The translations under genes and the position numbers were made by a program. From IMG/VR virus record IMGVR_UViG_3300027708_001637: a stretch of 64,000 bases of DNA. The stretch is one strand, 5' to 3'. Below, one piece after another: positions 6,977-54,673 of this stretch (positions within the stretch are counted from its first letter, which is position 1; the number at the start of each line of letters is the position of its first letter). The notes under the pieces were generated by a model, which had not been told where the DNA came from, did not search any database, and saw only the letters and a program-made list of their open reading frames with translations. Source of the DNA: a virus.

Positions 6977-7555
6977 ATGAGTACACAGTTATCTAATTTT
7001 TATTCAGGGCAGTTATTAGTGGCCAACCCCAATAATCCACGGGATGAGTTATCAAAAAGTGTAAGTTTAATTGTCAGCCATAATCGCCATTTGGCCCTAG
7101 CATTACAGTTAAACAATAGCCTGGTTCATATGACACTACACGAAGTGGCTGAAAACACTGGACTTGATACCAGTAGTTCTGCCAGCAGATTAGGCGTGCC
7201 TTTGTACTATGGTGGTGTTCATAATATACATAGGGTCCAAATAATCCACACGCCAGATTGGCGTGGACCCACTACTACCGTACTAAACAAAGAAATTGCC
7301 ATTACCAGCGACCTCAGTATATTGCAAGCATTGAGTCAAGGATATGGTCCCAAATTATTTAGAGCATGTGCAGGCTACTGGAGTTGGGAAGATGGCAAAC
7401 TGGATAATCAATTGGACAACAGTAACCAAGATGAAACGCATCGCTGGGAAATTGCCGACGCCAATATTGAAACCGTATTTAAAATAGACAGCGATCAACA
7501 ATGGCAACTTGGTCTAATCAATGCTGCACATATAACCACTGCCCAATGGCTTTAA
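6977..7555 (+). CDS. yqgE: YqgE/AlgH (DUF179) family protein
   Basis: GQLLVANP...SVSLIVSH...LYYGG...AGYWSWEDGKLDNQL pattern. Confidence 0.75.
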   Translation: MSTQLSNFYSGQLLVANPNNPRDELSKSVSLIVSHNRHLALALQLNNSLVHMTLHEVAENTGLDTSSSASRLGVPLYYGGVHNIHRVQIIHTPDWRGPTTTVLNKEIAITSDLSILQALSQGYGPKLFRACAGYWSWEDGKLDNQLDNSNQDETHRWEIADANIETVFKIDSDQQWQLGLINAAHITTAQWL

Positions 7556-9021
7556 TCCTTTTCAGGATTTAAGTTATCCAGCATACTTCTAATCTTGGGT
7601 GCTTGACCTGTAGACTTTGATTGCAGTTTAGTAAAGTCAAACCCTTCCTTAGCCTTGGGCTTTTCCCAATTATCAACTGTACTAGTACTTACTACACTGG
7701 TACGTTTTAAGCCTTCCATTACACTGGACGTTCCGCCGCCGCCTTGCCTAAAACCTGGTTGTTGCTGTTCTTCTTCATCAATGTCAGTAATACGCAATGT
7801 ATCAATATTAAATTCCAAATCACATTTCTGACCAACACCACTACTACTACGTGTCTTCATAAACTGGATTTGATAGCGCCCACGTTCCTTCATAGCACGA
7901 CTGGTAAAGATACCAATTACGTTATCTGCTGTCATAATCTTACTTAGGCCACCCGAGATATGACTGTGGTCAAATTCAATTTCTTCAACAGCACTACGAT
8001 TCAACTGACTGGCAGTAACAGTCACACATTGTGTTTCCATTGCTAAGTTTCTGATCTCTTCAGCCACGTATTTGTCCTTAACAAACAAATCACTGGGACT
8101 TACCTTCACACTTAAAGGCATCATTAAATCAAGGTAATCTATAAGCAAAACGTCTGGTTTCACGCCTGTTTTAACCTGATATTCCTTTAAATAGGCTCGA
8201 ATATCGTTACAGTTTTTTCCTGAAGGCATATACTTAACTTGCATATGTCCACTACGTTTTCCCAACATTTTAACTTTGAGTTCAACGTCATCCAAGTTGC
8301 GGAAGATCTCTCTAGTACCAATGCCAGTTGTCATACTGTCCAATCGCATTGACACCAAACCTTCACTCAACTCAAATGTTAGATAGATAACGTTCAAACC
8401 CATCAGTGCCCAGTTCACGCCCAAGTTAGCCAAGAACAAACTCTTACCACCACCCGATCCTGCACAGAAGATATTCAACTCACCACGATTGAATCCTCCA
8501 TACAGCTTCTTATCAACACCTGGCCATCCTGTACTAATCTGTCCATTGTTGTCTTTAAGTTTTGCCAAACGGGCACGGGGATCAGCAAAGTAATCAGTGC
8601 CCATATCTTTGTTAAGACTAATTTGAATAGCGTTCTTAATTAGTAATTCAACTGGACCATAGTCGCCCGCTTCCAGCAAATCACTGGATTCAATAATAGC
8701 ACGTTCAAGTCCTTTATGTCGACTAAAATTTTCAAACTCATTCATTAGCCATTCGTAGTTTTCTTTGGGAATTTGAATTGCTTCAAACTCACTGCGAGTG
8801 GCTGCATTGACAATATTTGTCTCGGGCATTACCTTATAGTCATCAACATACTTGTTAATAAATTCGGCCGATGTCTGTAGTCTTTGATCAAAGTTTAATG
8901 GATCAAAAATATTTTGGCAGCGTATAAAAGTTTCAGCATCACTTAGAAACATTTCCAAGTAAAGTTTTTGCATCGCATAATCGTAATTGGGTTTTGGCGT
9001 ATCTTTTTTATTCTTTGACAT
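7552..9021 (-). CDS. DnaB/gp41-like replicative helicase
   Basis: AGSGGGKS Walker A, LLIDYLDL Walker B, TASQLNR, KTRSS. Confidence 0.92.
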   Translation of the reverse strand: MSKNKKDTPKPNYDYAMQKLYLEMFLSDAETFIRCQNIFDPLNFDQRLQTSAEFINKYVDDYKVMPETNIVNAATRSEFEAIQIPKENYEWLMNEFENFSRHKGLERAIIESSDLLEAGDYGPVELLIKNAIQISLNKDMGTDYFADPRARLAKLKDNNGQISTGWPGVDKKLYGGFNRGELNIFCAGSGGGKSLFLANLGVNWALMGLNVIYLTFELSEGLVSMRLDSMTTGIGTREIFRNLDDVELKVKMLGKRSGHMQVKYMPSGKNCNDIRAYLKEYQVKTGVKPDVLLIDYLDLMMPLSVKVSPSDLFVKDKYVAEEIRNLAMETQCVTVTASQLNRSAVEEIEFDHSHISGGLSKIMTADNVIGIFTSRAMKERGRYQIQFMKTRSSSGVGQKCDLEFNIDTLRITDIDEEEQQQPGFRQGGGGTSSVMEGLKRTSVVSTSTVDNWEKPKAKEGFDFTKLQSKSTGQAPKIRSMLDNLNPEKD

Positions 9022-10003
9022 TTAGTAGTTTCTTTTCTAATAGGTGTAAATTTATCTCGCCCTGTACTCGATAGTGTAGGATAGTAGTTAGCACGTACAG
9101 ACGACCGTATCGTTTAACTGCATCTGCCACATCTTTTATATCATCCTCCCACGGTGGCAAACTGGCACTCCATTTATTTTTTATGGCAGCGCCGACAAGT
9201 TTTGCACCAGGTTTATCTTTATCTGGAACAACAATGACTTCTCTACCTAGCGAGTTCAGTCGTGTACATTGAGTTTCATTTGGATCGTTATGCATTACAG
9301 CACAACCATCTATCGCTATGGCATCAAATTGGCCTTCTACAACGATGACGTATTTACGGTCGAATGTCTGTGCATCCAAATTAAACACATAACCTGGTTG
9401 TGCGTCCGTTAGATATTTTGGCTTACCTTCTTTGATCTTGCGTCCAGTGTAACCTACGATTTTCCCGTCGTGATAAAATGGCAGTATGACTCGATCTCGG
9501 TATCCATCAGCCGCACTCCAATGCCAGTTGTACCAATCCCACCCCATCTTACGAGTGGTTACAACATATTCGATTACTGCCAACAATTCTGGATCGTGGC
9601 ATCCTTCCTCTATCCAAGTATCGATTGGCAAGCAATCATCAGGTAGGGGTTTTTCCTGTAAAGTAAAGTTTAGCGGCTTCTTAAGTACAGGTTGGTCGTC
9701 TACTACCTTCAATGCCACTAGGTTTAATTTGCCAATGTCTATTTCACTAAGCCCCATCCATTTGAATAGGCTTCTAGTATTCTTGCTGAGTAGTTTGCCC
9801 GGAGTCCATCCTGCTTTGAATCCGCAGTTGAAGCAGTGGTAAACAAATCCGTCTTTGTCGATTCTTATTCCACCACGAGCCCGTGTATCCATACTATCAC
9901 CATTATGATGACAGCATACCGCGTTGAAGCTGGTCCATCCACTTGGAGAGGATTTACGCTTTGGAGGCAATAGTGCTAACAGGGTATCCTGTATTTCATT
10001 CAT
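9008..10003 (-). CDS. DNA primase (gp61-like: Zn finger + TOPRIM)
   Basis: CCH...HCFNC zinc motif, VVEGQFDA, PDKD; adjacent to helicase. Confidence 0.85.
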   Translation of the reverse strand: MNEIQDTLLALLPPKRKSSPSGWTSFNAVCCHHNGDSMDTRARGGIRIDKDGFVYHCFNCGFKAGWTPGKLLSKNTRSLFKWMGLSEIDIGKLNLVALKVVDDQPVLKKPLNFTLQEKPLPDDCLPIDTWIEEGCHDPELLAVIEYVVTTRKMGWDWYNWHWSAADGYRDRVILPFYHDGKIVGYTGRKIKEGKPKYLTDAQPGYVFNLDAQTFDRKYVIVVEGQFDAIAIDGCAVMHNDPNETQCTRLNSLGREVIVVPDKDKPGAKLVGAAIKNKWSASLPPWEDDIKDVADAVKRYGRLYVLTTILHYRVQGEINLHLLEKKLLNVKE

Positions 10004-10008
10004 CAACT

Positions 10009-10049: not shown

Positions 10050-10904
10050 TCAACTTCTATATAAGACTCGGTCAAACGAACCGTAATAAGCAGGGTCGTC
10101 GTTGGTATTGGTGGCAGGATTATCTGCAGGGATGAATTGAACACGGACATAACTGTATATACCGTTAAAGTTGACATAGTCAACGCCGCTAAATCCATCA
10201 TAAGTCAACGACTGTACATTGAAATAGTAGCCAGTTGAGTCTGGTTGATTATTCATTGTGGCCTGTATGTTTACCGTACCTTTGAAGTCAGTCATATACA
10301 GGGCCATTGTGTGTAATGCCGTGTTGCTTTTATATTCTGGATAGGCATAGACATTGCCGCTAGTGTGTTCGTATTTGCCCAGGCCGCCGTGGAGGCTGCT
10401 GTTGAATCTACGAATAAATGCAGTAATTTCTTGACTGGGCTGTAGTGCAGGGTAAATGTCCTCTGCCAAAGTCAGTGTACCGTTGATGCCATAGTAGGTA
10501 TTTGAATAAGCTGGCAAATAAGTTCCGTCAGCAGGATCTTGGTAAGTGATGGAGAAAGTGTAACTGCTAACATCCAAGTCTACTGTATCACTTTCGGTAA
10601 GTGTCAATTGTGCTAGTCCACGGAGGGCTAAGGTAGACCCATCGTCAATAACTGTCAATTGTTTTTGTAACAATTGTCTTTTCTCAAGTGCGTCAAACAT
10701 AGTAAACACAAAAGTTGAACTGTTGCTGATAGGTATACGTTTTTGGTCGCTATTCTTAAATTGAATTTGAACCTTGTTTTTGACACCCTTTTGTATTTTT
10801 AGATCACGTTGATACATAACTCGATTGACTCCTCGCACAGTTGAATCCAGGTCTAATATAACTGGATAAATATTTGGATATAAATAGACTGGTAAACTTA
10901 ACAT
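10050..10904 (-). CDS. hypothetical, probably virion beta-sandwich protein
   Basis: 284 aa beta-rich ORF behind AATAAATA late-type promoter. Confidence 0.6.
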   Translation of the reverse strand: MLSLPVYLYPNIYPVILDLDSTVRGVNRVMYQRDLKIQKGVKNKVQIQFKNSDQKRIPISNSSTFVFTMFDALEKRQLLQKQLTVIDDGSTLALRGLAQLTLTESDTVDLDVSSYTFSITYQDPADGTYLPAYSNTYYGINGTLTLAEDIYPALQPSQEITAFIRRFNSSLHGGLGKYEHTSGNVYAYPEYKSNTALHTMALYMTDFKGTVNIQATMNNQPDSTGYYFNVQSLTYDGFSGVDYVNFNGIYSYVRVQFIPADNPATNTNDDPAYYGSFDRVLYRS

Positions 10905-10924
10905 ATGAGTATTTATTGATTACA

Positions 10925-11308
10925 ATGTCATCTTCCGAAACCTTCCAAGAACTCCACCCCTTTGTCTCCTGCGTAAAATCGAACAATATCGAATACGTGG
11001 GCATTGTTATCAATTTTGATGACTACGTTACTAGCATATATGATATTAGTATGATAATTACAGACGAGGCACGTCGTAAATTTTTAGAATTGGGTGAAGT
11101 TTGGTGGTGGGAATCTAATAGAAAGATTCCCATTAGCATTTTTCTAAAGAAGGAAATGCAGGCATTTAGATATGCTATCAAAACATTTAATAGCAAAGAT
11201 ATCGAATTAGTATTTGGGCCCAGTGTAAATCTAAGTGAGATCGCCGAAAAGCGTATCAAACGCAAAAGTATTCAACTAGTACGTGTTCCTAAGAATACCC
11301 GTAACTGA
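10925..11308 (+). CDS. hypothetical protein
   Basis: ORF 10874..11308; start placed at ATG 10925 outside the opposite-strand gene. Confidence 0.65.
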   Translation: MSSSETFQELHPFVSCVKSNNIEYVGIVINFDDYVTSIYDISMIITDEARRKFLELGEVWWWESNRKIPISIFLKKEMQAFRYAIKTFNSKDIELVFGPSVNLSEIAEKRIKRKSIQLVRVPKNTRN

Positions 11309-11867
11309 TCTTTTCACAAATCAAATTCAATTGCACTACAATAACACTTGCATAGGAAATTGAATGACTCTTCTTAAAGAAATAGGTATCGTCAGTCTTA
11401 GTCCAAATTTCATCTTGGATCGCTTGGAAGCCCTGCTCCTTGCATATTGGAACGAGATGTTTCTTCCCAGGTCGCATCATAGCCAAGACCATAGCTAACT
11501 CAGTTACACTTTTTGGCGCAAGACTGGCTACCAATGTATGATATCCATTAATATGGAATAATTGATCGCACACTTCTTTCTCGCCTAGCAATTCCCAAAG
11601 TGGTTCAGTATTCAGCAATTGAACTAAATGGTCTTCATCTCTAACACCTTGATAAGCACTGACATTCAAAAAGTCAATCTTAAAATATCCTCTTGATTCA
11701 GCAGTCTTATAATCAATACTGGCTTGCCCAGTCAGTGGATTAACGGGAATAGGTTGACAATAAACACCTGTGTTATGTTTGCGTCCATCTTCCAAAGTGG
11801 CAGGAATATGTTTAATGATGTCTAACACACCATTACGATTTGCAAAGTCTAAATCAATATCCGGCAA
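11289..11867 (-). CDS. dnaE: miniature DNA polymerase III alpha (C-family) catalytic fragment
   Basis: PDIDLDF, KHNTGV, FKIDFL, MRPG and FKKSHS motifs of DnaE in only 192 aa; TTG start. Confidence 0.8.
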   Translation of the reverse strand: MPDIDLDFANRNGVLDIIKHIPATLEDGRKHNTGVYCQPIPVNPLTGQASIDYKTAESRGYFKIDFLNVSAYQGVRDEDHLVQLLNTEPLWELLGEKEVCDQLFHINGYHTLVASLAPKSVTELAMVLAMMRPGKKHLVPICKEQGFQAIQDEIWTKTDDTYFFKKSHSISYASVIVVQLNLICEKISYGYS

Positions 11868-12648
11868 TTCTTATCTCATCATAGGTTGGTGCATAATTAC
11901 CGCGGTGTTGAACTGTTATGCTTGCAGCGGTGTTAGCAAACATTATAGCAATTTTTATGTTTCCTGTCAATAGGTATTGATAAGTTAGCGCTGCCAAAAA
12001 AGTATCCCCTGCACCGCACACATCTGCTACTTCAACTTTAGTTGTTCGATATGTTTTGCCTTTATATTGAGCACCTTTGTCTCCTAACGTAACAATAACA
12101 TTGTCGCCAAGTGTTTTGGCATTCTTAAATTCAAGTTCGTTAATTTTGATATAAACGTGGGGTGACTGGAATGGGCGGGCGATGTCTGCTAATCTAGTTT
12201 TCTTTGTATCAATAAAGACTGGACACGAAACTTGTCTAACGAGGTCTTCTATTTCATCATAACGTAAAAAACCCTTATCATAATCTGATATCACAATGGC
12301 ATCATAACTTGTAATAGGGTCCGATGTTTTGCCACTCCAGTGAACAATTTTGGGTTCATCATCCACTCTTAGTAAATGTTGTCCTGATCGTTTATCAATA
12401 TATCTAGTCTTTTTAATGACGGCATCGTTAGTAATGAACTCTGCATCAATGCCTAACTGTTTAAGATTATTATATACGTTAGCAGCCATACCAGGCACTG
12501 TTGTAGTTTCAACATCCTTGATAACTGGCACTGGTGCTTCTGGACTCAGTCTATCAACTGTTCCAATCTTATATTCATCAATGCAACTATCACCGATCAG
12601 TAATACTTTGAATAATTTTTGTGCTGGAGTATTCTTCAATTCTGTCAT
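11854..12648 (-). CDS. hldE: HldE/RfaE domain I-like heptose-7-phosphate kinase (PfkB)
   Basis: LLIGDSCIDEY, RLSPEAPVPV, SDYDKG, DVCGAGDTF. Confidence 0.88.
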   Translation of the reverse strand: MTELKNTPAQKLFKVLLIGDSCIDEYKIGTVDRLSPEAPVPVIKDVETTTVPGMAANVYNNLKQLGIDAEFITNDAVIKKTRYIDKRSGQHLLRVDDEPKIVHWSGKTSDPITSYDAIVISDYDKGFLRYDEIEDLVRQVSCPVFIDTKKTRLADIARPFQSPHVYIKINELEFKNAKTLGDNVIVTLGDKGAQYKGKTYRTTKVEVADVCGAGDTFLAALTYQYLLTGNIKIAIMFANTAASITVQHRGNYAPTYDEIRIAGY

Positions 12649-12988
12649 ACCAATGTATCTTTTTAACGTATTGTTCTGCTACTACGCTTTTGCCTCGCCA
12701 ATCACTACCCTTAACCATAATGTCTGGCTGGTAAAGTTTAAGTAATCTAATAAGGTCTTCTTGACTGTCAAATAGTTCTACAATATCTACAGCCTTTAAA
12801 TTTTGTAGCATTATTCTGCGAAAGTTTTGATCGTTGATAGGTCGCTTATCGCCCTTAAGTTCTTTAACACGGCTGTCAGTATCGATACATACAACAAGGT
12901 AGTCACCTAAACTACGGGCCGTGTTTAGCATAGCAATATGCCCCGGATGGAGAATATCGAATGTACCATTTACAATCACTGTAGTCAT
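12590..12988 (-). CDS. HldE/RfaE domain II-like adenylyltransferase
   Basis: NGTFDILHPGH, KGDKRPIN, KGSDW, SSTKII; ATG 12988 overlaps upstream TGA. Confidence 0.85.
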   Translation of the reverse strand: MTTVIVNGTFDILHPGHIAMLNTARSLGDYLVVCIDTDSRVKELKGDKRPINDQNFRRIMLQNLKAVDIVELFDSQEDLIRLLKLYQPDIMVKGSDWRGKSVVAEQYVKKIHWYDRIEEYSSTKIIQSITDR

Positions 12989-13752
12989 GGATAATGCTTT
13001 CTTAACTTGGTCACGTCTGCACAAGTATATTTTTGATACTGTGTTTTAAGGTCATCTGGCATTGGGATATATTCAATCTTTGCTTCTAGACCTTCAGCAA
13101 TAGTTTCTGCAATATGTTGGAATGACTGTGGCTTGCCTGTTCCCACATTCCATATACCAGACTCTTGTACATTAAAGAATTTCTTGTGTACATTGATTAC
13201 TTCGCTGACTGGAACAAAATCACGTAGGAATTGGTCACTACCTTCAAACAATTTAATAACACCAGTCTCTTCTGCTTGCTTAGTAAACTTATGATGTGGA
13301 CTAGGTTGATCTTTATGATCTTCGTGAGGGCCGTAAACATTGAAGTAACGGAAACCTTGTACACGAATGTCCTTAAAGTTTTGCGACATCACACTTCTAT
13401 CAAATAGGTATTTGCTCCAAGCATAGGGACTTGCAGGATTTGGCGGGGTATTTTCACTAAAATTATTAGTCAGCCCGTATACGCTGGCACTGCTGGCATA
13501 TTGCAAGTTAACACCATTTTCTATGCAGGCTAACAGTGTTAGACAACTAAAGTCATGATTTTGTCTCATAACTTTTTCTACATCTCGTTCGTTAGTGCTA
13601 CTAATTGCACCTAAGTGAATACACCAATCTAAACCAGCAAAGTTTGGAGGAGCATCACCCCAGTTGTAAAAAGAAAGTTCGTGGTCGTCTTTAAGTGCAT
13701 TGACCATATTTTGGCCAATAAAACCTTTATGACCCGTAATTAAGATTTTCAT
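12985..13752 (-). CDS. hldD: ADP-L-glycero-D-manno-heptose 6-epimerase
   Basis: TGHKGFIG, YASSASVYG, YAWSK, FRYFNVYGP, YQKYTCAD. Confidence 0.85.
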   Translation of the reverse strand: MKILITGHKGFIGQNMVNALKDDHELSFYNWGDAPPNFAGLDWCIHLGAISSTNERDVEKVMRQNHDFSCLTLLACIENGVNLQYASSASVYGLTNNFSENTPPNPASPYAWSKYLFDRSVMSQNFKDIRVQGFRYFNVYGPHEDHKDQPSPHHKFTKQAEETGVIKLFEGSDQFLRDFVPVSEVINVHKKFFNVQESGIWNVGTGKPQSFQHIAETIAEGLEAKIEYIPMPDDLKTQYQKYTCADVTKLRKHYP

Positions 13753-14108
13753 TTCTGACTATCGCCTTTTCCTACACGGTAATTATCTGCTATACTATCA
13801 GGCATACTAACTTCAATAATTGTTCCTTCTTCAATACATATCAATTGATGAGGTAACAGCGGAACATTATGCCAAGTATCTCCCACATTTAATTCATGGG
13901 CTTGTACATCTGCTGTTTTAGTATCGATAATCTTAACAATAAACTTTCCACTTAGTACATACCAAGATTCTTCTTTCTCAGAATGAAAGTGCATACTAAA
14001 TTTTGCGCCTGTATTAAAATTCATTAACTTGCCGCAGTACTTGTCAGTGGTGGCCCAAATTAATTCGCTGCCCCAACCCTTTTTTACAAAGCCTTCTAAT
14101 CTTATCAT
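13749..14108 (-). CDS. cupin-fold sugar isomerase-like protein
   Basis: KGWGSELIW, SMHFHSEKEESW, PHQL cupin motifs. Confidence 0.75.
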   Translation of the reverse strand: MIRLEGFVKKGWGSELIWATTDKYCGKLMNFNTGAKFSMHFHSEKEESWYVLSGKFIVKIIDTKTADVQAHELNVGDTWHNVPLLPHQLICIEEGTIIEVSMPDSIADNYRVGKGDSQK

Positions 14109-14287
14109 TCTGGTATCTCCGTAAATCTCAATAGGAAACTTTCCATATAACAACTATATTCAGTACCAGTATCTTGCTCTCGATAATAGATCCACGTATG
14201 ATCTTCGATTTCCTTTGTGTATATTACACAGAATATTTTACGGCTATCCGCGCCGCACCACTTGCTTCCATCTTTTGGTATTTTCAT
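14105..14287 (-). CDS. hypothetical protein
   Basis: 60 aa ORF with ATGA coupling to the cupin gene. Confidence 0.6.
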   Translation of the reverse strand: MKIPKDGSKWCGADSRKIFCVIYTKEIEDHTWIYYREQDTGTEYSCYMESFLLRFTEIPE

Positions 14288-29478: not shown

Positions 29479-30551
29479 ATGTTACCGTTTTTAAATGTTC
29501 TATTTTGTTCTGGCAGAGGTTCAGTGGTAACACTGGCGGCGGCAGCAAAAACCGCATCACTAAGTGCATTAGTTAGTACATTCTTTGGATTAAAACCATA
29601 TACTTGCCAAGCCAATCTTGGATTTTCCAATAACTGTCTTGCAACACCCACAGCCCGTAATGTAGAACCTATTGCTAATAGTGATTTTGATAATTCACCA
29701 GTACTTGGTGGTTTAACTACATCCAACGGTGGTCTAAAATCAGTCTCTTCTAAAATAGATCCAGAGCGTGCACCCAAGTTTGGTGCCCCGTAAATCAATG
29801 TACTGGGAGTGTTGTCGCGATACTCGTTGGCAAGTCCAGTTAAATTTGTTAATGCTACGTTGGTTCCAATTGTGCCCTCTTGATAAAATACGTCTTCGTA
29901 CATTAGGGACATACTATTTTTTAAAAATTTGCTGCCGTTTTCCTGATCCAATGAATCATGTTCCCACGATGTTATTAGGGGATTGATCAAAGACATTTTG
30001 GTATAGTTGTTCTGATGCAATACAAAAATATCAATACTTGTAAAAAAAGATTTCTGTTTTGCATTTTGATAACCATATTGATAATCTATTGTACCAAATT
30101 TAGTATCACTCAATTCTTTGGCAGTTTCATTTTTCTTAGGAGAATAATTAGGATCGGTATAATAATATTTGAAATAGTTTTTCCAAAGCCCAGTTGTGTT
30201 TGATGCCATATCATCGTGGAATTCAAGTTTTACAGGTTCATAATTAAGTTTGGTTTGTATATTTGTTTTTCTATTATATTGGTTGATAGTTTCAGTGGCA
30301 ATTTTAAATTTGGGCAATTGAACGTTCTTTGCCAGTAATCCTGCTGCTAAGTTATCCCAACCATCTAGTTTTGCTTCTTTATTAATATTGAAATACACAT
30401 AATATAAAAATGCTGATTTAGGAGTAAGAGCTGAGTTATTTGAACTATATAACTTAGATGCGTGATTAGAACTACGCAACCACGGGCGACCGTATTCACC
30501 TGTAGTATAGGGACCGGCGGCTTCTTGACTGATGTTACTATTATTGGGCAT
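29475..30551 (-). CDS. tail tube-fold baseplate/tube initiator protein (gp48/gp54-like)
   Basis: VQLPKF...QYNRK...YEPVKLEFHDD tube-fold motifs; follows tube gene. Confidence 0.65.
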   Translation of the reverse strand: MPNNSNISQEAAGPYTTGEYGRPWLRSSNHASKLYSSNNSALTPKSAFLYYVYFNINKEAKLDGWDNLAAGLLAKNVQLPKFKIATETINQYNRKTNIQTKLNYEPVKLEFHDDMASNTTGLWKNYFKYYYTDPNYSPKKNETAKELSDTKFGTIDYQYGYQNAKQKSFFTSIDIFVLHQNNYTKMSLINPLITSWEHDSLDQENGSKFLKNSMSLMYEDVFYQEGTIGTNVALTNLTGLANEYRDNTPSTLIYGAPNLGARSGSILEETDFRPPLDVVKPPSTGELSKSLLAIGSTLRAVGVARQLLENPRLAWQVYGFNPKNVLTNALSDAVFAAAASVTTEPLPEQNRTFKNGNI

Positions 30552-40641: not shown

Positions 40642-41523
40642 TTATAGTTGTTTGCCTAGCGTAGGTAGTATCTTTTTAGCACCTGGCGCCGTTTGCATAC
40701 CTGTGATCCAATTTAAGTTTTTCTTTTGATCAAAGTTTTGTTTCCAAAAACTCTTGGGGCTGTATGTATCCCATAATTCGCCTGGCAAAATACTACGTCT
40801 TTCTTTATATTCTACTCGTCGACGCACAGTATGCAATCCTGTTATTTTAGCCTGAACGTCAAACTCGTCGTAACTATCTTCAACATTTTCAAAATCATGC
40901 TCATACCAAGATTCGCCTAAGAATTGATAAATTTGTTGAAGTACAGCTTTGGGATTTTTAACCAGTGTGTCATATTCTACATAACAAATTTGATTAATTT
41001 CGTTACAAAACATACTTTGCTGTACGTTGATTAACGGTCCGTGAACATAGCCACCAAAGTTTGGCACCTTTCCCATTAACATACTGCATCGATCGTGAAT
41101 ATTGCCCAACTCTTGATGATGATATAACGGTTTGATTGTATGGGGATTCTTTGCATTGAGTTGTTCAAAGCTATCCAAGATCCACGGAACATCTCTAAGA
41201 CAAACAATCATCTTAAAGTCGGGGAATAAATCTTTTAATAAAGCAGTGTCTGCACTCCAACCACGATTGGTATTAAAGCATACTTGGTTACCATATTTGT
41301 AAAAGCTATCAAATAGGTCACGCATTAGTTCACGTCGCCGTTCAAGCGGAACTGCGGCATCCATTCCTACGGCAGTATTAGTATCTTTAGTGATACTATG
41401 CATATAGCTAGCCAAAGGATCACTTATTCCTGCTGTAAATCTAGGATTCTGTTTTAAGATGGCACTTAATAAGGTTGATCCAGATCTAGGTAATCCAGAA
41501 ATAAAGTGGTAAGTTTTGCTCAT
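40642..41523 (-). CDS. sulfotransferase
   Basis: SGLPRSGSTLL 5'-PAPS loop, IVCLRD..WILDSF, YVEYDTLV. Confidence 0.85.
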   Translation of the reverse strand: MSKTYHFISGLPRSGSTLLSAILKQNPRFTAGISDPLASYMHSITKDTNTAVGMDAAVPLERRRELMRDLFDSFYKYGNQVCFNTNRGWSADTALLKDLFPDFKMIVCLRDVPWILDSFEQLNAKNPHTIKPLYHHQELGNIHDRCSMLMGKVPNFGGYVHGPLINVQQSMFCNEINQICYVEYDTLVKNPKAVLQQIYQFLGESWYEHDFENVEDSYDEFDVQAKITGLHTVRRRVEYKERRSILPGELWDTYSPKSFWKQNFDQKKNLNWITGMQTAPGAKKILPTLGKQL

Positions 41524-43217
41524 TTATTTTTCTTAACAAGTTTACCAACATCGGGCAAATACAAATATTCAATATCACTGTTAAACAAAGTAACTAATGC
41601 ATCAATAATTGTTTCAACTAGTGGCTGGCCAGCTAGATTAAAACTAGTATTGAACAACAAAGGCACCCCTGTGAGTTTTTGGAACTCACTAATCAGTTCA
41701 TAGTAATGAGGATTTTGATCTGGATTGACAGTTTGCACTCTGCAAGTATTATCTACGTGTGTTACTGCTGGAATTTGTTCAATTTTATCTTCACGAACAT
41801 CTACAGCATACATCATAAATGGACTAGATGTCATTCCTGCCATATCAAACCATTCATTAGCGTGTTCTTCTAAGACAGATCCAGCAAATGGGCGGAACCA
41901 TTCGCGACGTTTAACACGATTAACAAAGTCTTTGCCATCAGGTCTACGTGGATCAAACAATATACTACGATTGCCTAATGCACGTGGGCCTCCCTCTGCA
42001 CGACCTTGGAATAGTGCAACAATATTTCCTTGATCAATTAACTGTGCAATATCGCTAGCAGTCGCATCAACAACTTCAGCATTAAGTTTATTTTGTTCAA
42101 TTAAACTTAATTGACTATAATCAGGAGGAGCACTTAGATATACTGTAGATAATTCTTTTGGCGTAGTTTCTAAAGATTGAACAAACCAAGCATACCTTGC
42201 AAGACCAATAGCAGTGCCGCCATCGTGAGCAATGGGGTCAATATAGAACTTCAAATTAGGAAAACGTTTAACAAATTTATAATTTGCCACACAATTTAGA
42301 CCAAAACCTCCAGAAATAACCACGTTTGTTTCACCAGTAATATCAACAGCCTTTTGTATTAGATCATACATCTGTTCTTCAACAGCCTGTTGTACGTGAT
42401 ATGCAAGATTCTTATCCACATCACGAATAAGATTAAAATCGTTATGCCATTCTTTAGGTTCAGCAAAACGTTTCAAATAAGGATTACGGTTTTCGTCAAT
42501 ACGTGCGCCAGCAGGATATAATGGCATCAATAAATTCTTATTGCCCTTACCATTAATAAAAAATTCAGGAATATATTCATCGCGCTCGCCGTATGGCGCA
42601 AGCCCCATAGTCTTACCCGCTTCGATAAAGCCAAAACCTAGATAATCACTCACTGCTTCGTACGCTTTGGTAATAGTTACTGAGTTATCAAATTCTTGGA
42701 TACCGTTATCATAATATGCAGCATTGCCATCTGCATAACGTTTGTATACTGCATTAAATTCGTGAGGATAGGAACATTGATAAATTGTTTCAGTTTCAAA
42801 TCCCCCTACTACAAAGTTTTCATTTACTTGTTCTTGATGAAATGACCCAGCGCCGTCCACAATAATTGCTACCGCAGAGTCAAAACCTGACCCATAAAAT
42901 GTATTTGCTGCGTGTCCTAAATGATGTAAATGACCCATCTTTGTAATTTTAACATTAGGATTGAATTTACGGGCAAGTGCAGAATACGCATCTTCTCCAG
43001 TCCACGGTAATTGTGATAATTGATTAGTGGTCCCGCCAATAACGATTTCATCAACTACGTGATTGATTAAAACGTGTATCATTGCTCTAAATGGATTGCC
43101 GTCATATTTCATACGGCTTAATCTTTCTTCTTCTGAATAATAAACAACTTCGCCGTCGACTACTAGTGCAGCCGAACCGTTATGTCCAGGATTAATTGCT
43201 AAAATGCTGTATGTCAT
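41520..43217 (-). CDS. NodU/CmcH-family carbamoyltransferase
   Basis: EEERLSR.K, HHLGHA, GKTMGLAPYG, SGGFGLNCVAN, GPRALGNRSIL, KRREWFRPFA, NTSFN. Confidence 0.93.
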   Translation of the reverse strand: MTYSILAINPGHNGSAALVVDGEVVYYSEEERLSRMKYDGNPFRAMIHVLINHVVDEIVIGGTTNQLSQLPWTGEDAYSALARKFNPNVKITKMGHLHHLGHAANTFYGSGFDSAVAIIVDGAGSFHQEQVNENFVVGGFETETIYQCSYPHEFNAVYKRYADGNAAYYDNGIQEFDNSVTITKAYEAVSDYLGFGFIEAGKTMGLAPYGERDEYIPEFFINGKGNKNLLMPLYPAGARIDENRNPYLKRFAEPKEWHNDFNLIRDVDKNLAYHVQQAVEEQMYDLIQKAVDITGETNVVISGGFGLNCVANYKFVKRFPNLKFYIDPIAHDGGTAIGLARYAWFVQSLETTPKELSTVYLSAPPDYSQLSLIEQNKLNAEVVDATASDIAQLIDQGNIVALFQGRAEGGPRALGNRSILFDPRRPDGKDFVNRVKRREWFRPFAGSVLEEHANEWFDMAGMTSSPFMMYAVDVREDKIEQIPAVTHVDNTCRVQTVNPDQNPHYYELISEFQKLTGVPLLFNTSFNLAGQPLVETIIDALVTLFNSDIEYLYLPDVGKLVKKNK

Positions 43218-44203: not shown

Positions 44204-45598
44204 TTAGCGGTACCAGAACCAAACATTCTTACTAGTATGTTGTATTTCTGTAGTAATGTCAAGCTCTTTTCTAAAATCATTTACTGCTCGATTTACTTCA
44301 GGCAAGTTCCAATCGTGTCCTGCAAATATCCCGCCAGGTTTTACTTTGGACCAATATGCTCTAAGATCTCGGCTCACTGCGGCATAGCTGTGGTCACCAT
44401 CAATAAAAATATAATCCAATTCATTATCTGCAATATGATCTGCCGCTGCAATAGAATCCATCTCTAACATTTCAATTTGATCTGCATAGGGGGCAAGCAA
44501 GCTAACAGCGTGATTACGCCACACATCAACCATATCCTGTGTCACAGGTCCCCACCAATCTTGATATGGCTGGTAAGCATCAATAGCATAAACTTTATTA
44601 ATTTCACTGGAGTGGTCTAAAAAGTACCTCAATGTCCAGGCCCAACATACTCCTAGTTCACAGCCAACTAAATTTGTGCCTAATTTTTTAATATAGGCCA
44701 ACAGGCCATCTGCACTTACCTTATCCATAGGAACTATACTATTACCCTGTTTAATCCATAACATCTGTTTAATCATACCAGTGAAATTATTATTTTGAAA
44801 ATAATTCCATAGTTGGTATTTGTCTGCTACACGTCTTGCATCGCCGCCAGTCAATAATAAATTTGTTAACTCACTACCCCAAAGTTCAACAAATCTTTGA
44901 TAATATTGAGTATCACGCTGTTTAGTTTCTTGTGCAGTTTCTACCCCACTCCAACTGCTTTTTCCTTGAAAGTGCAGCAGATAAGATTGACTAACGTACT
45001 TTACATCAAATCCTGCTTGAATAGCTCTGATTCTATAATCAACATCTTCCCCGCCGTGACCGTACAACTCATCAAAGCCGCCAATTTTCTTATAAATTTT
45101 AGAAGGAATTTTAACAGCGTAAAACGGTATGAGGTGGCGGTCAAATAGACCTGGTTTAACTGAGGATTTATGTTGACGTACTATATTGTTTAACTCATAC
45201 TCATTGTATTGATCAATATTCATCGCCGATTCTAATGTAAAATTATCACTAGAATATATATGAGTTTGATTGCAACTTGGCACAACAATACAGTTACTAT
45301 ATCCTTGAAGAGGCACAGCCCAATCAGGAGTAAATGCAATATCATTGTTTAAGATTACAACATCTTTACCATCAGCCAATGCAATAATTTTGTTAACATT
45401 TTTAGCAAAATTCTGCGGCACTTCATTTGCAATAATCGTAACTGCTTTATCACCGTGTGCACCAACTGCATCGTTATCAATTAGATAAAATTTATCATCA
45501 GGTCCAAGTTTTGTATATTTTAAAAATGTATCAATTGCAAGGCCTGTATAAAAATCAGATTTTGCAGTAGATATAATTGCGTAAACAGTACCTTTCAT
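44204..45598 (-). CDS. GT2 glycosyltransferase fused to SAM-dependent methyltransferase
   Basis: LNNDI, GFDELY..GEDVD; C-terminal ELGV, IFIDGDHSY, KPGGIFAGHDW. Confidence 0.85.
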   Translation of the reverse strand: MKGTVYAIISTAKSDFYTGLAIDTFLKYTKLGPDDKFYLIDNDAVGAHGDKAVTIIANEVPQNFAKNVNKIIALADGKDVVILNNDIAFTPDWAVPLQGYSNCIVVPSCNQTHIYSSDNFTLESAMNIDQYNEYELNNIVRQHKSSVKPGLFDRHLIPFYAVKIPSKIYKKIGGFDELYGHGGEDVDYRIRAIQAGFDVKYVSQSYLLHFQGKSSWSGVETAQETKQRDTQYYQRFVELWGSELTNLLLTGGDARRVADKYQLWNYFQNNNFTGMIKQMLWIKQGNSIVPMDKVSADGLLAYIKKLGTNLVGCELGVCWAWTLRYFLDHSSEINKVYAIDAYQPYQDWWGPVTQDMVDVWRNHAVSLLAPYADQIEMLEMDSIAAADHIADNELDYIFIDGDHSYAAVSRDLRAYWSKVKPGGIFAGHDWNLPEVNRAVNDFRKELDITTEIQHTSKNVWFWYR

Positions 45599-46395
45599 TT
45601 CTTTCTCCAAAATTCTAAATGCATATTTCTATACATATTAGTCAACTCTCTGCCAATAACTTCTTCAGGTGGGGGACTGGCTTTCTTCAATGTAGGCCTA
45701 ACATCGTGTAGTCCAACAAGGCCGCCGTGAAACCCATCATTCTCATCCATGGGCTGTAGATTATTTGTATCTAATTTAAATGTATCAATGTTGATAAAAT
45801 TACAAATCTTATCAATAGTTTCTTGACCATTGCCTACAATATCTTTGTATTCTAAAAATAACATTTCAACATCGCCCGAATTAACACCAATACGTAAACT
45901 AGTATAAGGATGGGAGATGTATTTTTCCCAAAGTATTTTACATCGATTTTTAGTGTTGACTGGTAAACCCGAATCAATTAAATCCTGGTCGACGAATGTA
46001 ACTCTATCATTATTACGCTCAATCAATAAACAGTATGATGCTAGAATATCAGGAATACTACGAACCGTACAAATAATCAATGGCTTGAATCCAAACACTT
46101 GTCTAGTAATGGCGCCATATCTGGGCCACAATCTATTTTTATCAACGATTGTTTGTTTATCAATATGTTTATATGCACCATCGATTGCACCCAACATAAT
46201 ATTGCTGTACTGTTTGGGGTGCGGATCAACTAATGCTTGACTAATATTAGGCCACTGTTCGCCAATTATGCCAACTAGGTCTGCTACTGGGCTGGTAGTT
46301 GATGCATATATTTCTGGATGTTGATTTAACATTGAACTGAGTACTTGACTGCCAGATCTAGGAATTCCAGAAAGCATAACAAAATTCTTGTTCAT
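45595..46395 (-). CDS. sulfotransferase
   Basis: SGIPRSGSQVL, IICTVRSIPDILAS. Confidence 0.8.
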   Translation of the reverse strand: MNKNFVMLSGIPRSGSQVLSSMLNQHPEIYASTTSPVADLVGIIGEQWPNISQALVDPHPKQYSNIMLGAIDGAYKHIDKQTIVDKNRLWPRYGAITRQVFGFKPLIICTVRSIPDILASYCLLIERNNDRVTFVDQDLIDSGLPVNTKNRCKILWEKYISHPYTSLRIGVNSGDVEMLFLEYKDIVGNGQETIDKICNFINIDTFKLDTNNLQPMDENDGFHGGLVGLHDVRPTLKKASPPPEEVIGRELTNMYRNMHLEFWRKK

Positions 46396-48026: not shown

Positions 48027-51000
48027 TTAAGTGCTACTATTTAACCTGTCTTCTAAGGCTGTTATACGAGTCTTGAGACTGGCATTTTCTTCAGCAAGTT
48101 CTTGAATTGCTCGTACTATAATGGGTAATAGTTTTCCGGGAGTGGCTTCTAGCCGTTCTGGATTTTCTTCCAGCACCAATGGCAACCAATCCTTGACACC
48201 ATACTTTTCAGTAACTGCTAACAATTCCTGGGCAATAAATCCAGCTTCTGAAACGCCAACCTTTCCGCCGTCACGCATATTCCAGGTAAATTTAACTGGA
48301 CGGAGATCCATGATAAATTTTAGACCTAATGGAACATTTTCAACACTAGTTTTATCCCTAATATCAGACAGTGCGGTAATTGTAGTTACTTGAGCACGAA
48401 TTGTGGCAATATTTGCATCACCTAATGTGATTGTGTTGTTGCTGGTTGCAGTGAGACCTTGTGCGTTACAACCTAAGAATACATTATTAGAACCAGAAAA
48501 GGCCGCCGCAAATGCAGTGTTGTAGCCAATAGCAATATTATGATTGCCAGAACTAAAGTTGAGTGCAGACTGTCCAAAGGCAATATTATGGCAACCATTG
48601 CCACCACCACTAAGTGCATTACATCCAATAGCAATATTATTACTGCCAGTGATGTTACCTTGCAATGCACCATTTCCAACAGCCGTGTTACTACTACCAC
48701 TGGTGTTGTTGCAGAGTGCCCTGCATCCAAAAGCGACATTATTATTACCGTAACTATTGCTGTAGAGTGCGCAGATTCCTACAGCAAAATTATTAGCGCC
48801 AGTTGTGTTGAAAATAAGTGAAGCCCATCCAATAGCAACGTTATTACATCCGCTGGTGTTGCAATATAATGCTTGATATCCAATGGCAGTATTATTACAG
48901 CCGGTGTTGTTAAAGTAGAGAGCTCTGTATCCTATAGCCGTGTTACTAGCACCACTGGTGTTGTTGCAGAGTGCCTGACATCCAATGGCAGTATTATTAC
49001 AGCCAATGGTGTTGCCATAGAGTGCACAGGCGCCTACAGCAAAGTTGCCGCTGCCAATGGTGTTACTTGTCAATGCGTTAGAACCAACAGCAAAGTTACT
49101 ACTACCAGTAGTATTAGCTTTGAGTGCCGAATACCCAATTGCTGTGTTGTTGTTACCAGAGGAGTTGAAATAAAGTGCAGAACAGCCTAATGCAACATTA
49201 TTATTTCCCCCAGCGTTATTAGTAAGGGCAGCTTGGCCTACTGCAATATTATTAGAACCAACAAGGCCCGGGCCGCCAGCCTGGCCGTAGAGTGCATTGA
49301 AACCAATAGCAACGTTATTGCAGCCGCTATAGTTGTTAGTAAGTGCTGAGCAGCCAATGGCCAGATTATTTTTACCGCTGGTATTACAGGACAGCGCAAG
49401 GCAACCAATAGCTGTGTTATTTGAACCATTGAGACTGAAGCCAAGTGCAGAAGATCCAATTGCAACATTATTAATACCAGTAGTGTTAGATTTTAGTGCA
49501 CAACAGCCAATAGCAACATTATAGCTACCAGTAGTATTTGATGCTAACGATGTATAACCAATAGCAACATTACTATTACCAGAGGAGTTGGTATCTAGTG
49601 CATTACAACCTACTGCAAAGTTATCACAACCTAACGAATTACTATATAGTGCACCACTACCCAGAGCAGTATTATTGCCTCCAATAGTGTTTAGGAACAG
49701 TGCATTACATCCAATAGCAATGTTATAACCACCAGTAGTATTGCAGCATAATGCATATTGTCCTGCTGCAAAGTTATCACTACCAGCAGTATTTGAATAC
49801 AAGGCACCATAACCGATAGCAACGTTGTTACAACCAGTACGATTACAGTATAATGCAAACGAGCCAATTGCCAAATTATTTGAGCCAGTGGTATTGTTTA
49901 GTAAAGATACTGGTCCAATGGCAACGTTATTACAGCCACCGGTGTTATTAGAAAGTGCGCTGTTTCCTATAGCAGTATTATCAGTGCCAATAGTGTTGCA
50001 ATATAGTGCCTTATATCCCTGGGCAGAGTTGCTGTTGCCAAATGTATTATTGTATAGTGCCAGACAACCAATTGCAATGTTATTGGGACCAGTAGTATTA
50101 TTATAAAGAGCACAGCGTCCTACTGCAAAGTTATTTGAGCCACTAGTATTTTTATAAAGTGCATAAAATCCAATAGCTGTGTTGTTTGAGCCACTAGTAT
50201 TAATACCAAGTGCCTGATAACCAATAGCAGTATTATTATTACCGATGGTATTGGTGAATAATGCAGAACATCCAATAGCAAAGTTGTTGCAGCCATTGGT
50301 GTTCGATGTTAGAGATCCATATCCTATTGCAACGTTATTGATGCCAATAGTATTACAATAAAGTGCGCCACCTCCAATAGCTGTGTTATTACATCCAGAT
50401 GTATTATAGTTTAATGCAAAGGCCCCTACTGCAAAGTTATTTGAGCCAGAAGAATTAGAAGAAAGGGCGTTGCAGCCTAATGCAACATTATTATTGCCAA
50501 TGGTATTGCAAAGTAGCGCACAAGTTCCGTTTGCAATATTATTATTTCCAGAACTGTTGGCTCTTAAAGAATTCGCCCCAAACGCTATATTACCAGACCC
50601 GGTTAAATTACCACACAAGGCCCAATATCCCTGAGCAATATTATAACTTCCGGCTGTATTATTATAGAGCGAACAATATCCAATTGCAATGTTATGAATA
50701 CCAGTTAAGTTGAGCTGCATAGCAGAAAGACCAATGGCTGTGTTGTAAGATCCAGTAGTATTGCAAAACAATGTTTGATATCCAATAGCAATATTACTAA
50801 ATCCGCTAGTGTTAAAGTTCATTGCACTAGTTCCTACAGCAATGTTATTACTGCCAATGGTGTTTGCACATAAGGCACCATTTCCAACAGCAAAGTTACC
50901 GCAACCAATGGTGTTACCTGTCAATGCGTTAGAACCAACAGCAAAGTTACTACTACCAGTAGTATTAGCTCTGAGTGCCGAATACCCAATTGCTGTATTA

Positions 51001-54000
51001 TCAGTGCCAATAGTATTAGAAAGTAGTGCAAAACATCCAATAGCCACATTATTACTACCAGTAGTGTTTGAATATGCTGCACAGAAACCTACTGCAAAGT
51101 TATTTGAGCCGGTGGTGTTGTTTAGTAGTGCATTACATCCAATAGCTGTGTTATTTGAGCCACTAGTATTAATACCAAGTGCCTGATAACCAATAGCAGT
51201 ATTATTATTACCGTTGATATTGGCGAATAATGCAGAACATCCAATAGCAACGTTATGAGTACCGTAGGTGTTTTTGGCAAGCGTGGATGATCCTATTGCA
51301 ACGTTATTACGTCCTGAAGTATTACTACATAACGCAGAGCATCCTATTGCCGTGTTATTATAACCAGATGTATTATTGTACAGTGCCTGATAACCAATAG
51401 CTGTGTTATTACAACCAGCGGTGTTGCCATAGAGTGCAAAATATCCAATAGCTGTGTTATTACAACCAGAGCTGTTGACGTACAGAGATTTCTTTCCAAT
51501 TGCTGTGTTATTATTACCATAAGCGTTACAATACAAAGCCTGATATCCCTGGGCTACGTTATCATTGCCAGCGCAGGTAAAACGCATTGCACAGCCACCA
51601 ATAGCTATGTTATTACTACCAGAAGTGTTATAGTACAGCGTACATAGACCAATGGCTATATTATTTGAGCCGATTTCGTTTGCAGTTAGTGCCCTATATC
51701 CTTGAGCTATGTTATTTGAACCAGTGGTGTTGCAGCGGAGTGTGGCATAACCAATAGCTATGTTATTAGCACCAGTAGTGTTATAGTACAACGCAACTTG
51801 GCCAATAGCAGTGTTATTTGAGCCAGAAATATTACCATACAATGCATTGCAACCTATGGCAGTGTTATTACAACCAATAGTATTACATTTAAGTGCGCCA
51901 AAGCCCAATGCAACGTTGTTACTACCGCTGGTGTTTGTACACATGGCAAAACAACCAATTGCTAAATTATTGTTACCAGTAGTGTTTTTAGTTAGAGCAC
52001 TACACCCAATAGCAATGTTGTTACTACCAATAGTGTTTGCACATAAGGCAAATGGTCCAATGGCAACGTTTGTACAACCAGTAGTATTATTCTTTAATGC
52101 GTTATAACCTTGAGCAAAGTTATAACTACCAATGGTGTTGGCAGCTAATGCGTTGCATCCCGATGCAAAGTTTCCGTTACCAATGGTGTTAGCACATAGT
52201 GCCGCATATCCAACCGCAGCATTATTACTACCAGTAGTATTAGATAATAACGCTAAACATCCAATAGCAATGTTATTAACACCAGTGCTTGTTATATTGC
52301 TACTACAGTATCCTACACTAATATTACCAGTGCCACTTGTGGTATAGGCATACACAGTACCAAGTGCAGTTGGAGTTGCTGCACTTGCGCCACTGGTATT
52401 GACCAATGTATTGTTTACATATAATCCACTATTGTCAACACGAATACGTTCACAAGTACCAGCACCAATCAATACAGTACATACACATCCAGCAGCAGCT
52501 GATAATGAACCAATAATGGTGTTGTTAACACCAGTTGTTAATGCAGACCCTGCTAATGCACCAATTGCAATGTTACTACCAGAAGCATTACTTAATACTA
52601 ATGAACAGCAGCCAATTGCAATACTGTTACTGCCAGTGGTATTACATATAAGTGAATAATACCCTTGAGCAAAGTTATTACTACCACTGGTGTTGCAGAG
52701 AAGTGCATAATAACCTTGAGCAATATTGTTACAGCCAATAGTATTGTTTTGCATTGCACTACGGCCAATTGCTATGTTATTTGACCCAGTTGTAGTAAGT
52801 CTTAAAGACCAATAACCTTGGGCAAAGTTGTTACAGCCAGTAGAGTTGACTCCCAGTGCCTGATAACCTTGAGCAAAGTTAGAACCCCCAATGGTGTTCT
52901 TGCATAGCGCATTAAAACCAACAGCAAAGTTATTGCTACCGGTGGTATTACAATAAAGTGCTAGACTTCCAACCGCAAGATTGTTATTACCAGTACTATT
53001 TTTGGCAGCAGCACAGTAACCAATTGCAACGTTATTACAACCGCTTCCATTCAAAAAGAGTGCATTACAACCAATGGCTGTGTTATTACAGCCGCTGGTA
53101 TTTCCGTAAAGTGCAGCATAACCTAATGCAACATTATTACTTTGTATATTACCTTGGAGAGCACATTGACCAATAGCTATATTATAACAACCAGAAATAT
53201 TTGAGCATTGTGCTTTATACCCAGCGGCAAAGTTTCCAAATCCGTTAACATTAGATCTCAAACCGTAAGTACCAAAGGCAAAATTATCAACCCCAACAGT
53301 ATTGCAAGTAAACGCCTTATATCCCATTGCAATATTATTACAGCCGCCGCCGGCAAAACCAGCACAGAATCCAAACGCTATGTTATTATTGCCAGTAGTG
53401 CCGCAATATTGCGCCTTATACCCTTGAGCAAAGTTTTGACAGCCAATGGTATTATTAGCCAAGGCCTGTGACCCAATGGCAATGTTATTTGAACCAGAAG
53501 TGTTGCAGCAAAGAGCAGCATAGCCAATAGCAGTGTTACATCCGCCACTAGTATTATTGTACAGTGCACACGCACCAATTGCGGTATTACTACAACCAGA
53601 GGTATTATTAGTTAATGTAAGTATTCCAATGGCAACGTTGAAACTTCCCGATTTGTTACCACATAATGCTCGATATCCTTGAGCAACGTTACCGCAGCCA
53701 AACGAGTTACCATATAATGCGTTATTACCAATAGCAATGTTCTGCTGCCCAGAAGTATTGCAGTATAGGGTATTATTACCTAAAGCAATGTTATGACAAC
53801 CAACAGTATTGCATCGTAGAGAATTAGATCCAACAGCAATGTTTCCAGATCCAGTTGTGTTATTCACTAACGCAAACCTTCCAATAGCCACATTAGCACT
53901 GCCGTAGGTATTACAGCCAGCGGCACATAGGCCAACTGCAAAATTGTCCCAACCAGTGGTATTTTTGCATAATGCGCCAAGACCAAATGCAAAGTTATTA

Positions 54001-54563: not shown

Positions 54564-54673
54564 TACGCTGTCCTTTTATTTCTTCTCTAAAGGACGTGAT
54601 GGCATAATAACTTGAATAAGTTATAAGTGCGCCATCATCGTCCGTAAACTCAGCTATGGTATTTAGCCAAGAT

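Follow-up and report, generated by a model that had tools for sequence, protein, structure and literature searches.

The window analysed here is a 64-kb stretch of phage DNA. On its minus strand, at 11289-11867, lies a gene for a protein of 192 amino acids, referred to below as mini-DnaE or the C-half. Translation begins at a TTG codon (11865-11867), and since an in-frame TAA is situated one codon upstream, the ORF cannot read longer. The N-terminus is M-P-D-I-D-L-D-F, in which two residues precede the acidic motif; start codon and P-D-I-D-L-D motif together occupy 11847-11867. The acidic strand contributes D3 (11859-11861), D5 (11853-11855) and D7 (11847-11849), of which D5 and D7 are the equivalents of D401 and D403 of the E. 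coli alpha subunit. The third catalytic Asp, the equivalent of E. coli D555, is found in K63-I-D65-F-L (11673-11681, minus strand). Two finger motifs follow at 11364-11474 on the same strand, namely R132-P133-G at 11466-11474 (R132-P133 at 11469-11474) and F164-K165-K-S-H168 at 11364-11378, and the chain terminates 24 residues past H168. Every motif that the initial annotation had named for this ORF, that is, the opening MPDxDxDF, the third Asp and FxKSH, is thereby located by coordinate. A Pfam search of the C-half returned no domain, PHP and Hint/intein domains included.

The TTG start codon of mini-DnaE overlaps the last 14 nt of a gene for a PfkB-family sugar kinase (11854-12648, minus strand; Pfam PfkB, E 9e-20). 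As the kinase stop codon lies inside the first codons of mini-DnaE, translational coupling of the two genes is likely. The kinase gene is the last of a four-gene sugar-nucleotide cassette at 11854-14153 on the minus strand, which also encodes a cytidylyltransferase-like protein, an NAD epimerase and a cupin. The cassette with its PfkB kinase was found upstream of the C-half in only 13 of 77 related loci; we therefore regard it as variable or mobile DNA inserted into the replication module and not as a part of the polymerase.

On the other side, a small convergent ORF of phrog_11637 (10874-11308, plus strand, probable start 10925) overlaps the 3' end of mini-DnaE by 20 nt with its own 3' end. 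This ORF adjoins the C-half in 75 of the 76 related loci with room for it, as well as in the phages Phosso and Atu_ph07, and its product may assist the polymerase or primase module as an accessory factor; a search of the ESM Atlas with this protein returned nothing. Beyond it lie, all on the minus strand, a virion-structural-protein-like gene (10050-10904; phrog_14467; present in 69 of 70 loci with room), a gene for a DnaG/Toprim-type primase (9008-10006) and a gene for a DnaB-like replicative helicase (7552-9021; Pfam DnaB_C, E 3e-14). The Pfam matches of the primase to DNAG_N and Toprim_4 are weak and below the curated cut-offs (24.1 bits against a cut-off of 26 bits for DNAG_N); its homologue in Phosso is annotated as 'DNA primase'. 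Primase and DnaB are located downstream of the C-half in all 56 related loci with enough flanking sequence, and the order C-half, phrog_11637 ORF, virion-structural-like gene, primase, DnaB is kept in these 56 loci as well as in Phosso and Atu_ph07.

Directly beside the helicase gene, on the opposite strand, an AlgH-like (DUF179) protein is encoded (6977-7555, plus strand). Elsewhere the window holds tail sheath, TerL and giant fibre genes, which are structural genes of a myovirus. Two adjacent giant repeat-rich virion or tail-fibre proteins of 2178 and 2038 aa are encoded at 48027-60790 on the minus strand, and matches to the same PHROGs, structural and tail-spike, recur along both of them in 9 to 24 stretches. 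Two further genes, close together at 41520-43217 and 44204-45610 on the minus strand, encode a Nol-like carbamoyltransferase (phrog_1601, E 8e-160) and a phrog_2675 protein with a DNA-methyltransferase-like C-terminal region, respectively; they may have a bearing on how this phage modifies DNA or glycans.

The C-half is collinear with the palm and core fingers of DnaE

The relationship of the C-half to known polymerases was assessed by profile and structure comparison. Among the PHROGs, the C-half was matched over its full length by phrog_11778 ('DNA polymerase', E 2e-62) and weakly by phrog_405 (DnaE, 1190 positions) at positions 581-679 (E 1e-7). A search of the PDB by phmmer with the single C-half sequence gave no DnaE match, and only a family profile, built from 34 homologues, found one. 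The profile matched M. tuberculosis DnaE1 (5lew) with an E of 3.5e-6, and the match was collinear: profile positions 1-13, 34-79, 52-137 and 163-178 correspond to DnaE1 residues 413-425, 480-526, 566-664 and 773-788, respectively. At DnaE1 413-420 the matched residues are identical, M-P-D-I-D-I-D-F. K-I-D-F-L of the C-half is aligned with K-M-D-F-L of DnaE1, R-P-G with residues 662-664, and F-K-K-S-H with F-N-K-S-H at 775-779. In DnaE, the latter two motifs border the dNTP/template site.

The AF2 model of the C-half (mean pLDDT 81) led to the same enzymes. With this model as the query, ranks 1-12 of the Foldseek search were all C-family polymerases (DnaE; best E 9.5e-4), and the top 13 matches of VIA-align were likewise all C-family polymerases with Z scores of 5.4-9.8, the best unrelated chain reaching a Z of 3.2. 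The structures compared were those of E. coli DnaE (2hnh), T. aquaticus DnaE (2hpi/3e0d/4iqj), M. tuberculosis DnaE1 (5lew/7pu7) and PolC (3f2b). The best VIA-align match was 2hnh, residues 403-781 (Z 9.8). Residues 1-190 of the model align with E. coli alpha 403-781, Taq 461-841 and PolC 971-1299; the C-family fold matches span 153-187 of the 192 residues, and the identity to the cellular enzymes in the structural alignments is about 11-22%.

The structural alignment stops at E. coli alpha 781, and the C-half itself ends 2-3 residues further. About 190 residues thus replace about 380 of the cellular enzyme, and the thumb and about half of the fingers are cut down to short connectors. PHP and the first half of the palm are absent at the N-terminal side, and the clamp motif, which in E. 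coli alpha sits near residue 920, the OB fold and the tau-binding domain are absent at the C-terminal side. The initial annotation had described the ORF as missing PHP, clamp-binding and OB domains and most of the thumb and fingers, and the confinement of the fold alignment to E. coli alpha 403-781 bears this out. Collectively, the C-half is homologous to and collinear with the palm and core fingers of DnaE. It shares with the bacterial DnaE and PolC enzymes the Pol-beta-like palm, the three Asp residues, R-P-G, F-x-K-S-H, their collinear order and the matching fold. It differs from them in having one-sixth of the size, in being without PHP, beta-clamp motif, OB fold and tau-binding domain, and in that the phage enzyme is interrupted after the strand with G-R-G-S and resumes, as a separate chain, at the DxD strand.

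Conservation of mini-DnaE as a stand-alone gene

Stand-alone, full-length homologues of the C-half with 40-50% identity were detected by tblastn in 96 isolate genomes, all of which are jumbo phages of the Rak2/121Q/PBECO4, PA5oct, XaC1, Atu_ph07 or Phosso type; identity to any isolate protein is at most about 50%, and a megablast search of the 9-14 kb region against isolate phages gave no match. Given these 96 matches, the synteny with Phosso and Atu_ph07 and the myovirus structural genes of the window, the phage is an uncultured freshwater jumbo myovirus of the Rak2/Atu_ph07 type ('group 2.2'). The initial annotation had spoken of a T4-like phage with a B-family polymerase. The polymerase part of that statement holds for the relatives, in which such an enzyme is encoded (see below), but the phage is of the Rak2/Atu_ph07 type and not classically T4-like.

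In metagenomes the family is far larger. At least 7973 homologous proteins of similar length (105-336 aa) were found, giving at least 400 representatives at 50% clustering, nearly all of them 185-205 aa long. Freshwater viromes contain the family in great abundance, in thousands of clusters at 90% identity. The start position is the same in nearly all of 80 IMG/VR loci, where the codon is mostly ATG and sometimes TTG or CTG, and length and start are constant across 160 IMG/VR loci and the 96 isolate genomes. In an IMG/VR scan seeded with the profile, the best 80 loci were all split, and seven candidates that appeared to be extended upstream proved to be ordinary split genes. A search for longer homologues, fused or full-length, gave none at E<=1e-3, which is weak evidence.

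Residues D3, D5, D7, K63, D65, W91, R132, P133 and H168 are invariant among 56 diverse homologues, and the catalytic Asp residues are invariant also in 34 close homologues. The dN/dS ratio across homologues, a check proposed with the initial annotation, had a pairwise median of 0.11 (21 pairs with unsaturated dS). Several freshwater metagenomes yielded contigs that contain the mini-DnaE stretch. Public assemblies include nearly identical contigs of 190 kb and, on a contig of 483 kb, a relative with 85% identity. One contig, from an independent freshwater sample, covers 11111-12505 with zero differences and zero indels, so that the split is not an assembly artefact. These data demonstrate that mini-DnaE is a conserved stand-alone gene under purifying selection.

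A metatranscriptome contig of 192 nt from lake water is identical to 11594-11785, inside the mini-DnaE ORF. The RNA run yielded three short contigs on the whole 64-kb stretch. The match hints at expression of mini-DnaE in nature, with carry-over of DNA as a possible source.

The N-terminal half, the B-family polymerase and a natural fusion

The G-R-G-S element of the C-family enzymes is not on the C-half chain; it is carried by a partner protein. When Atu_ph07 was scanned with phrog_405, a second small ORF, gp316 (177 aa), was detected 180 kb from gp74, the homologue of the C-half. The gp316 protein contains G-V-G-R-G-S and ends in D-F-S-E-F-L-E, just before the DxD strand of DnaE, and its gene is four genes away from that of the clamp loader. 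The initial annotation had proposed a search for an ORF with GxGRGSS that ends near the ERF motif, and the relatives do encode one: the N-half is an ORF of about 172-177 aa with G-V-G-R-G-S-S and an end in EFLK at the position of 'ERFL' in DnaE. Its environmental family is equally large (171-187 aa), with PF07733 as the sole domain (E 7e-12).

The position of the break was determined in DnaE coordinates. The N-half profile reaches as far as Taq 454 and E. coli 392 (weak matches, E 0.17-0.5). The start of the C-half corresponds to Taq 461 and, if D5 is equated with D401, to about E. coli 399, the structural alignment starting at 403. The two halves are therefore divided within a loop of about 6-8 residues, which leaves no space for intein pieces. 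Together with the negative Pfam search for Hint/intein domains, this agrees with the earlier statement that the gene is free of inteins.

The two halves occur together in the isolate genomes. Counted by genus, C-halves and N-halves number 34 and 34 for Escherichia, 11 and 11 for Pseudomonas, 8 and 8 for Erwinia, 8 and 8 for Salmonella, and 11 and 10 for Klebsiella. They are encoded 100-240 kb apart in Atu_ph07, in Phosso and in two IMG/VR contigs, G001 and G004. G001 (221 kb) is the closest large relative, with a C-half that is 78% identical; it carries the N-half at 50.2 kb, a B-family polymerase of 898 aa at 81-83 kb and the C-half near 203 kb. G004 (338 kb, 97% complete) has both halves, far apart, and Phosso encodes N-half, C-half and B-family polymerase. 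The B-family polymerase that the initial annotation had suggested looking for is thus present in Phosso and G001.

Within the 64-kb window, neither an N-half nor a B-family polymerase was detected by tblastn with two N-halves and PolB, and a six-frame scan for G-[RK]-G-S found a sole GRGS, in an antisense frame at 29512. The part with GRGS is accordingly absent from the window, as had been stated at the outset. As the window covers 64 kb of the genome, we infer from the relatives that this very phage encodes both the N-half and PolB.

One natural fusion of the two halves was found. The protein P0188 (L094:1066-2193), encoded by a complete gene on a metagenome scaffold of 2.4 kb, consists of 375 aa, made up of an N-half, a linker of 9 residues and a C-half. 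It matches PF07733, and the C-half query matches its residues 190-372. P0188 was the sole fused form among the 150 representatives listed, none occurs in the 160 IMG/VR loci, and a pattern search of IMG/VR for relatives of P0188 found none. Its AF2 model, computed from an alignment of eight N-halves and eight C-halves with a slip of about 10 residues at the junction, is of moderate quality (pLDDT 69.7; below 50 at the junction, 163-190, and about 50-60 at the GRGS loop). In a structure search with this model the top 19 matches were all DnaE or PolC (E down to 2.7e-6, TMq up to 0.55), and the next fold neighbours, which were non-significant, were the terminal nucleotidyltransferases GLD-2, Cid1 and PAP. 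The existence of the fusion supports the notion that both halves act as one enzyme.

Possible roles of the proposed two-piece polymerase

The split minimal Pol III alpha has already been published. Iyer, Anantharaman, Krishnan, Burroughs and Aravind (2021, Viruses 13:63, PMC7824862) describe it in section 3.4.1, on the basis of comparative genomics, for group 2.2 jumbo phages, which include Atu_ph07. The authors note that a family B polymerase is present alongside the split enzyme, for which they suggest a role in repair or in the synthesis of one strand. The system described there resembles the present one in consisting of two units with distant genes, an N-terminal 'NTP-binding' one and a C-terminal 'Mg2+- and DNA-template-binding' one, in the additional presence of PolB, in the lack of other Pol III domains, and in that Atu_ph07 and Rak2-like phages are the best isolate matches here. 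It differs in that the source of our C-half is an uncultured jumbo phage from freshwater, and in that identity to the isolate proteins is at most about 50%. The C-half almost certainly belongs to this family, of which it is a new uncultured freshwater member. Relative to that account, the additions made here are modest. They comprise the large extent of the family in environmental sequences, its invariant start, the rare fusion of 375 aa, the constant linkage to primase and helicase, and the constant convergent phrog_11637 ORF. In isolate genomes the halves are labelled 'DNA polymerase' or 'DnaE-like DNA polymerase III alpha'. A 2026 review of jumbo phages does not mention the split mini-DnaE enzyme, and our literature search found no biochemical or genetic study of the family.

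Taking all observations together, we consider it probable that mini-DnaE is the C-terminal subunit of a split minimal Pol III alpha-like enzyme of Rak2/Atu_ph07/PA5oct-type phages. The C-half would pair non-covalently with the separately encoded N-half of about 172 aa. The N-half would supply the G-R-G-S nucleotide-binding loop and the first helices and strands of the palm, and the C-half would contribute the three Asp residues and the finger motifs, thereby completing the Pol-beta-like palm. The Pol-beta-like active site would then be composite, from which it follows that neither half should be active alone. The resulting heterodimer of about 365 aa is expected to polymerise DNA without proofreading or clamp tethering and to be accessory to the B-family replicase of the phage, most plausibly in short-patch synthesis at the fork, such as primer extension or gap filling, or in repair. 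Such a heterodimeric mechanism of DNA polymerisation by N-half and C-half is reasonably likely; the co-occurrence of the halves, the natural fusion, the invariant Asp residues and the linkage to primase and helicase all support a two-half enzyme. The initial annotation had interpreted the gene as half of an intein-free, two-gene minimal C-family polymerase, and the partner ORF in the relatives, the co-occurrence, the fusion and the invariant Asp residues speak for this interpretation. It is doubtful but conceivable that the two halves by themselves make up a working polymerase of about 365 aa that needs no clamp and would be the smallest C-family member known, serving a single step at the fork and physically coupled to the adjacent primase-helicase. 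In such a case primers could be extended and then handed off to the B-family replicase, a division of labour like that of Pol alpha.

Other explanations differ in how much of the polymerase they retain. The active two-piece enzyme could be a template-independent or specialised nucleotidyltransferase, built on the Pol-beta-like core of DnaE and engaged in, for example, tailing, nucleotidylation of primers or proteins, or the handling of modified nucleotides. Compared with the cellular enzyme, it lacks the thumb and about half of the fingers, the 192 residues spanning E. coli 403-781; this loss is perhaps incompatible with ordinary templated synthesis, and the substrate may thus differ. No clamp-binding, OB or PHP module is present, GLD-2, Cid1 and PAP follow the C-family polymerases, at non-significant scores, in the structure search with the fused form, and the relatives already own a complete B-family replicase. 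However, the finger motifs R-P-G and F-K-K-S-H are invariant, every significant structural match is a DnaE or PolC, and the linkage to primase and helicase is constant, so that we regard a nucleotidyltransferase as rather unlikely. Far less credible is the proposal, also raised in the initial annotation, that the C-half alone interferes with the host Pol III holoenzyme, as an inhibitor or a decoy, for which neither catalysis nor a partner would be needed. The argument for it is that the C-half is a short piece of a host-like replication protein and is encoded by a lytic phage, but the catalytic residues are invariant over deep divergence, the N-half co-occurs, and a natural fusion exists. In addition, the chain contains no region of alpha known to bind epsilon, beta or tau, the alignment stopping at E. 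coli 781, and when structurally aligned with cellular DnaE it shares only about 20% of the residues. The decoy proposal therefore did not stand up.

Explanations that deny a two-piece enzyme altogether, in which the gene is a pseudogene of a full-length dnaE, the product of a frameshift or assembly error, or one piece of a protein joined to its partner by a split intein, have the small size of the ORF as their sole argument, and we consider them extremely improbable. The in-frame stop one codon upstream and the unrelated kinase gene before it leave no reading frame to restore, and the independent freshwater assemblies are identical without indels. The same length and start in 160 IMG/VR loci and 96 isolate genomes, as well as the dN/dS of 0.11, are at odds with a pseudogene; joining by a split intein is contradicted by the lack of a Pfam Hint/intein match and by the 6-8 or so residues between the halves in DnaE coordinates, in which there is no room for intein segments. 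Decay, frameshift and assembly error were accordingly rejected on the conserved length and start, the dN/dS, the retained primase-helicase neighbourhood and the identical independent contig.

The proposed heterodimer can also be set against other C-family polymerases that are split or encoded by phages. The split DnaE of cyanobacteria (Ssp/Npu) is likewise a C-family polymerase from two distant genes, but its halves are of full size and are trans-spliced by a split intein at another site. As the phage halves have no intein residues and no room for them, their assembly, unlike that of Ssp/Npu DnaE, must be non-covalent. Full-length phage DnaE (phrog_405), which is carried by group 3.2 jumbo phages such as Bacillus phage G and by Streptomyces and Enterococcus phages, shows the weak similarity to the C-half given above and tblastn matches to the N-half. 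It is nevertheless a host-like enzyme of about 1100-1200 aa with PHP that acts as the sole replicase, whereas mini-DnaE is minimal, split and an accessory to PolB.

To our knowledge, nearly all C-family polymerases described are replicases of bacteria, with a length of about 1100 aa or more. If the minimal-polymerase interpretation is true, the fused forms of 375 aa would offer a tractable single-chain model of the ancestral Pol III core. The family has cultured representatives in PA5oct/Paride, 121Q, Rak2 and Atu_ph07. With every catalytic residue retained in about 365 aa, the two-gene core would mark the smallest functional unit of the C-family, and B-family and C-family polymerases would be seen to operate side by side in some giant phages.
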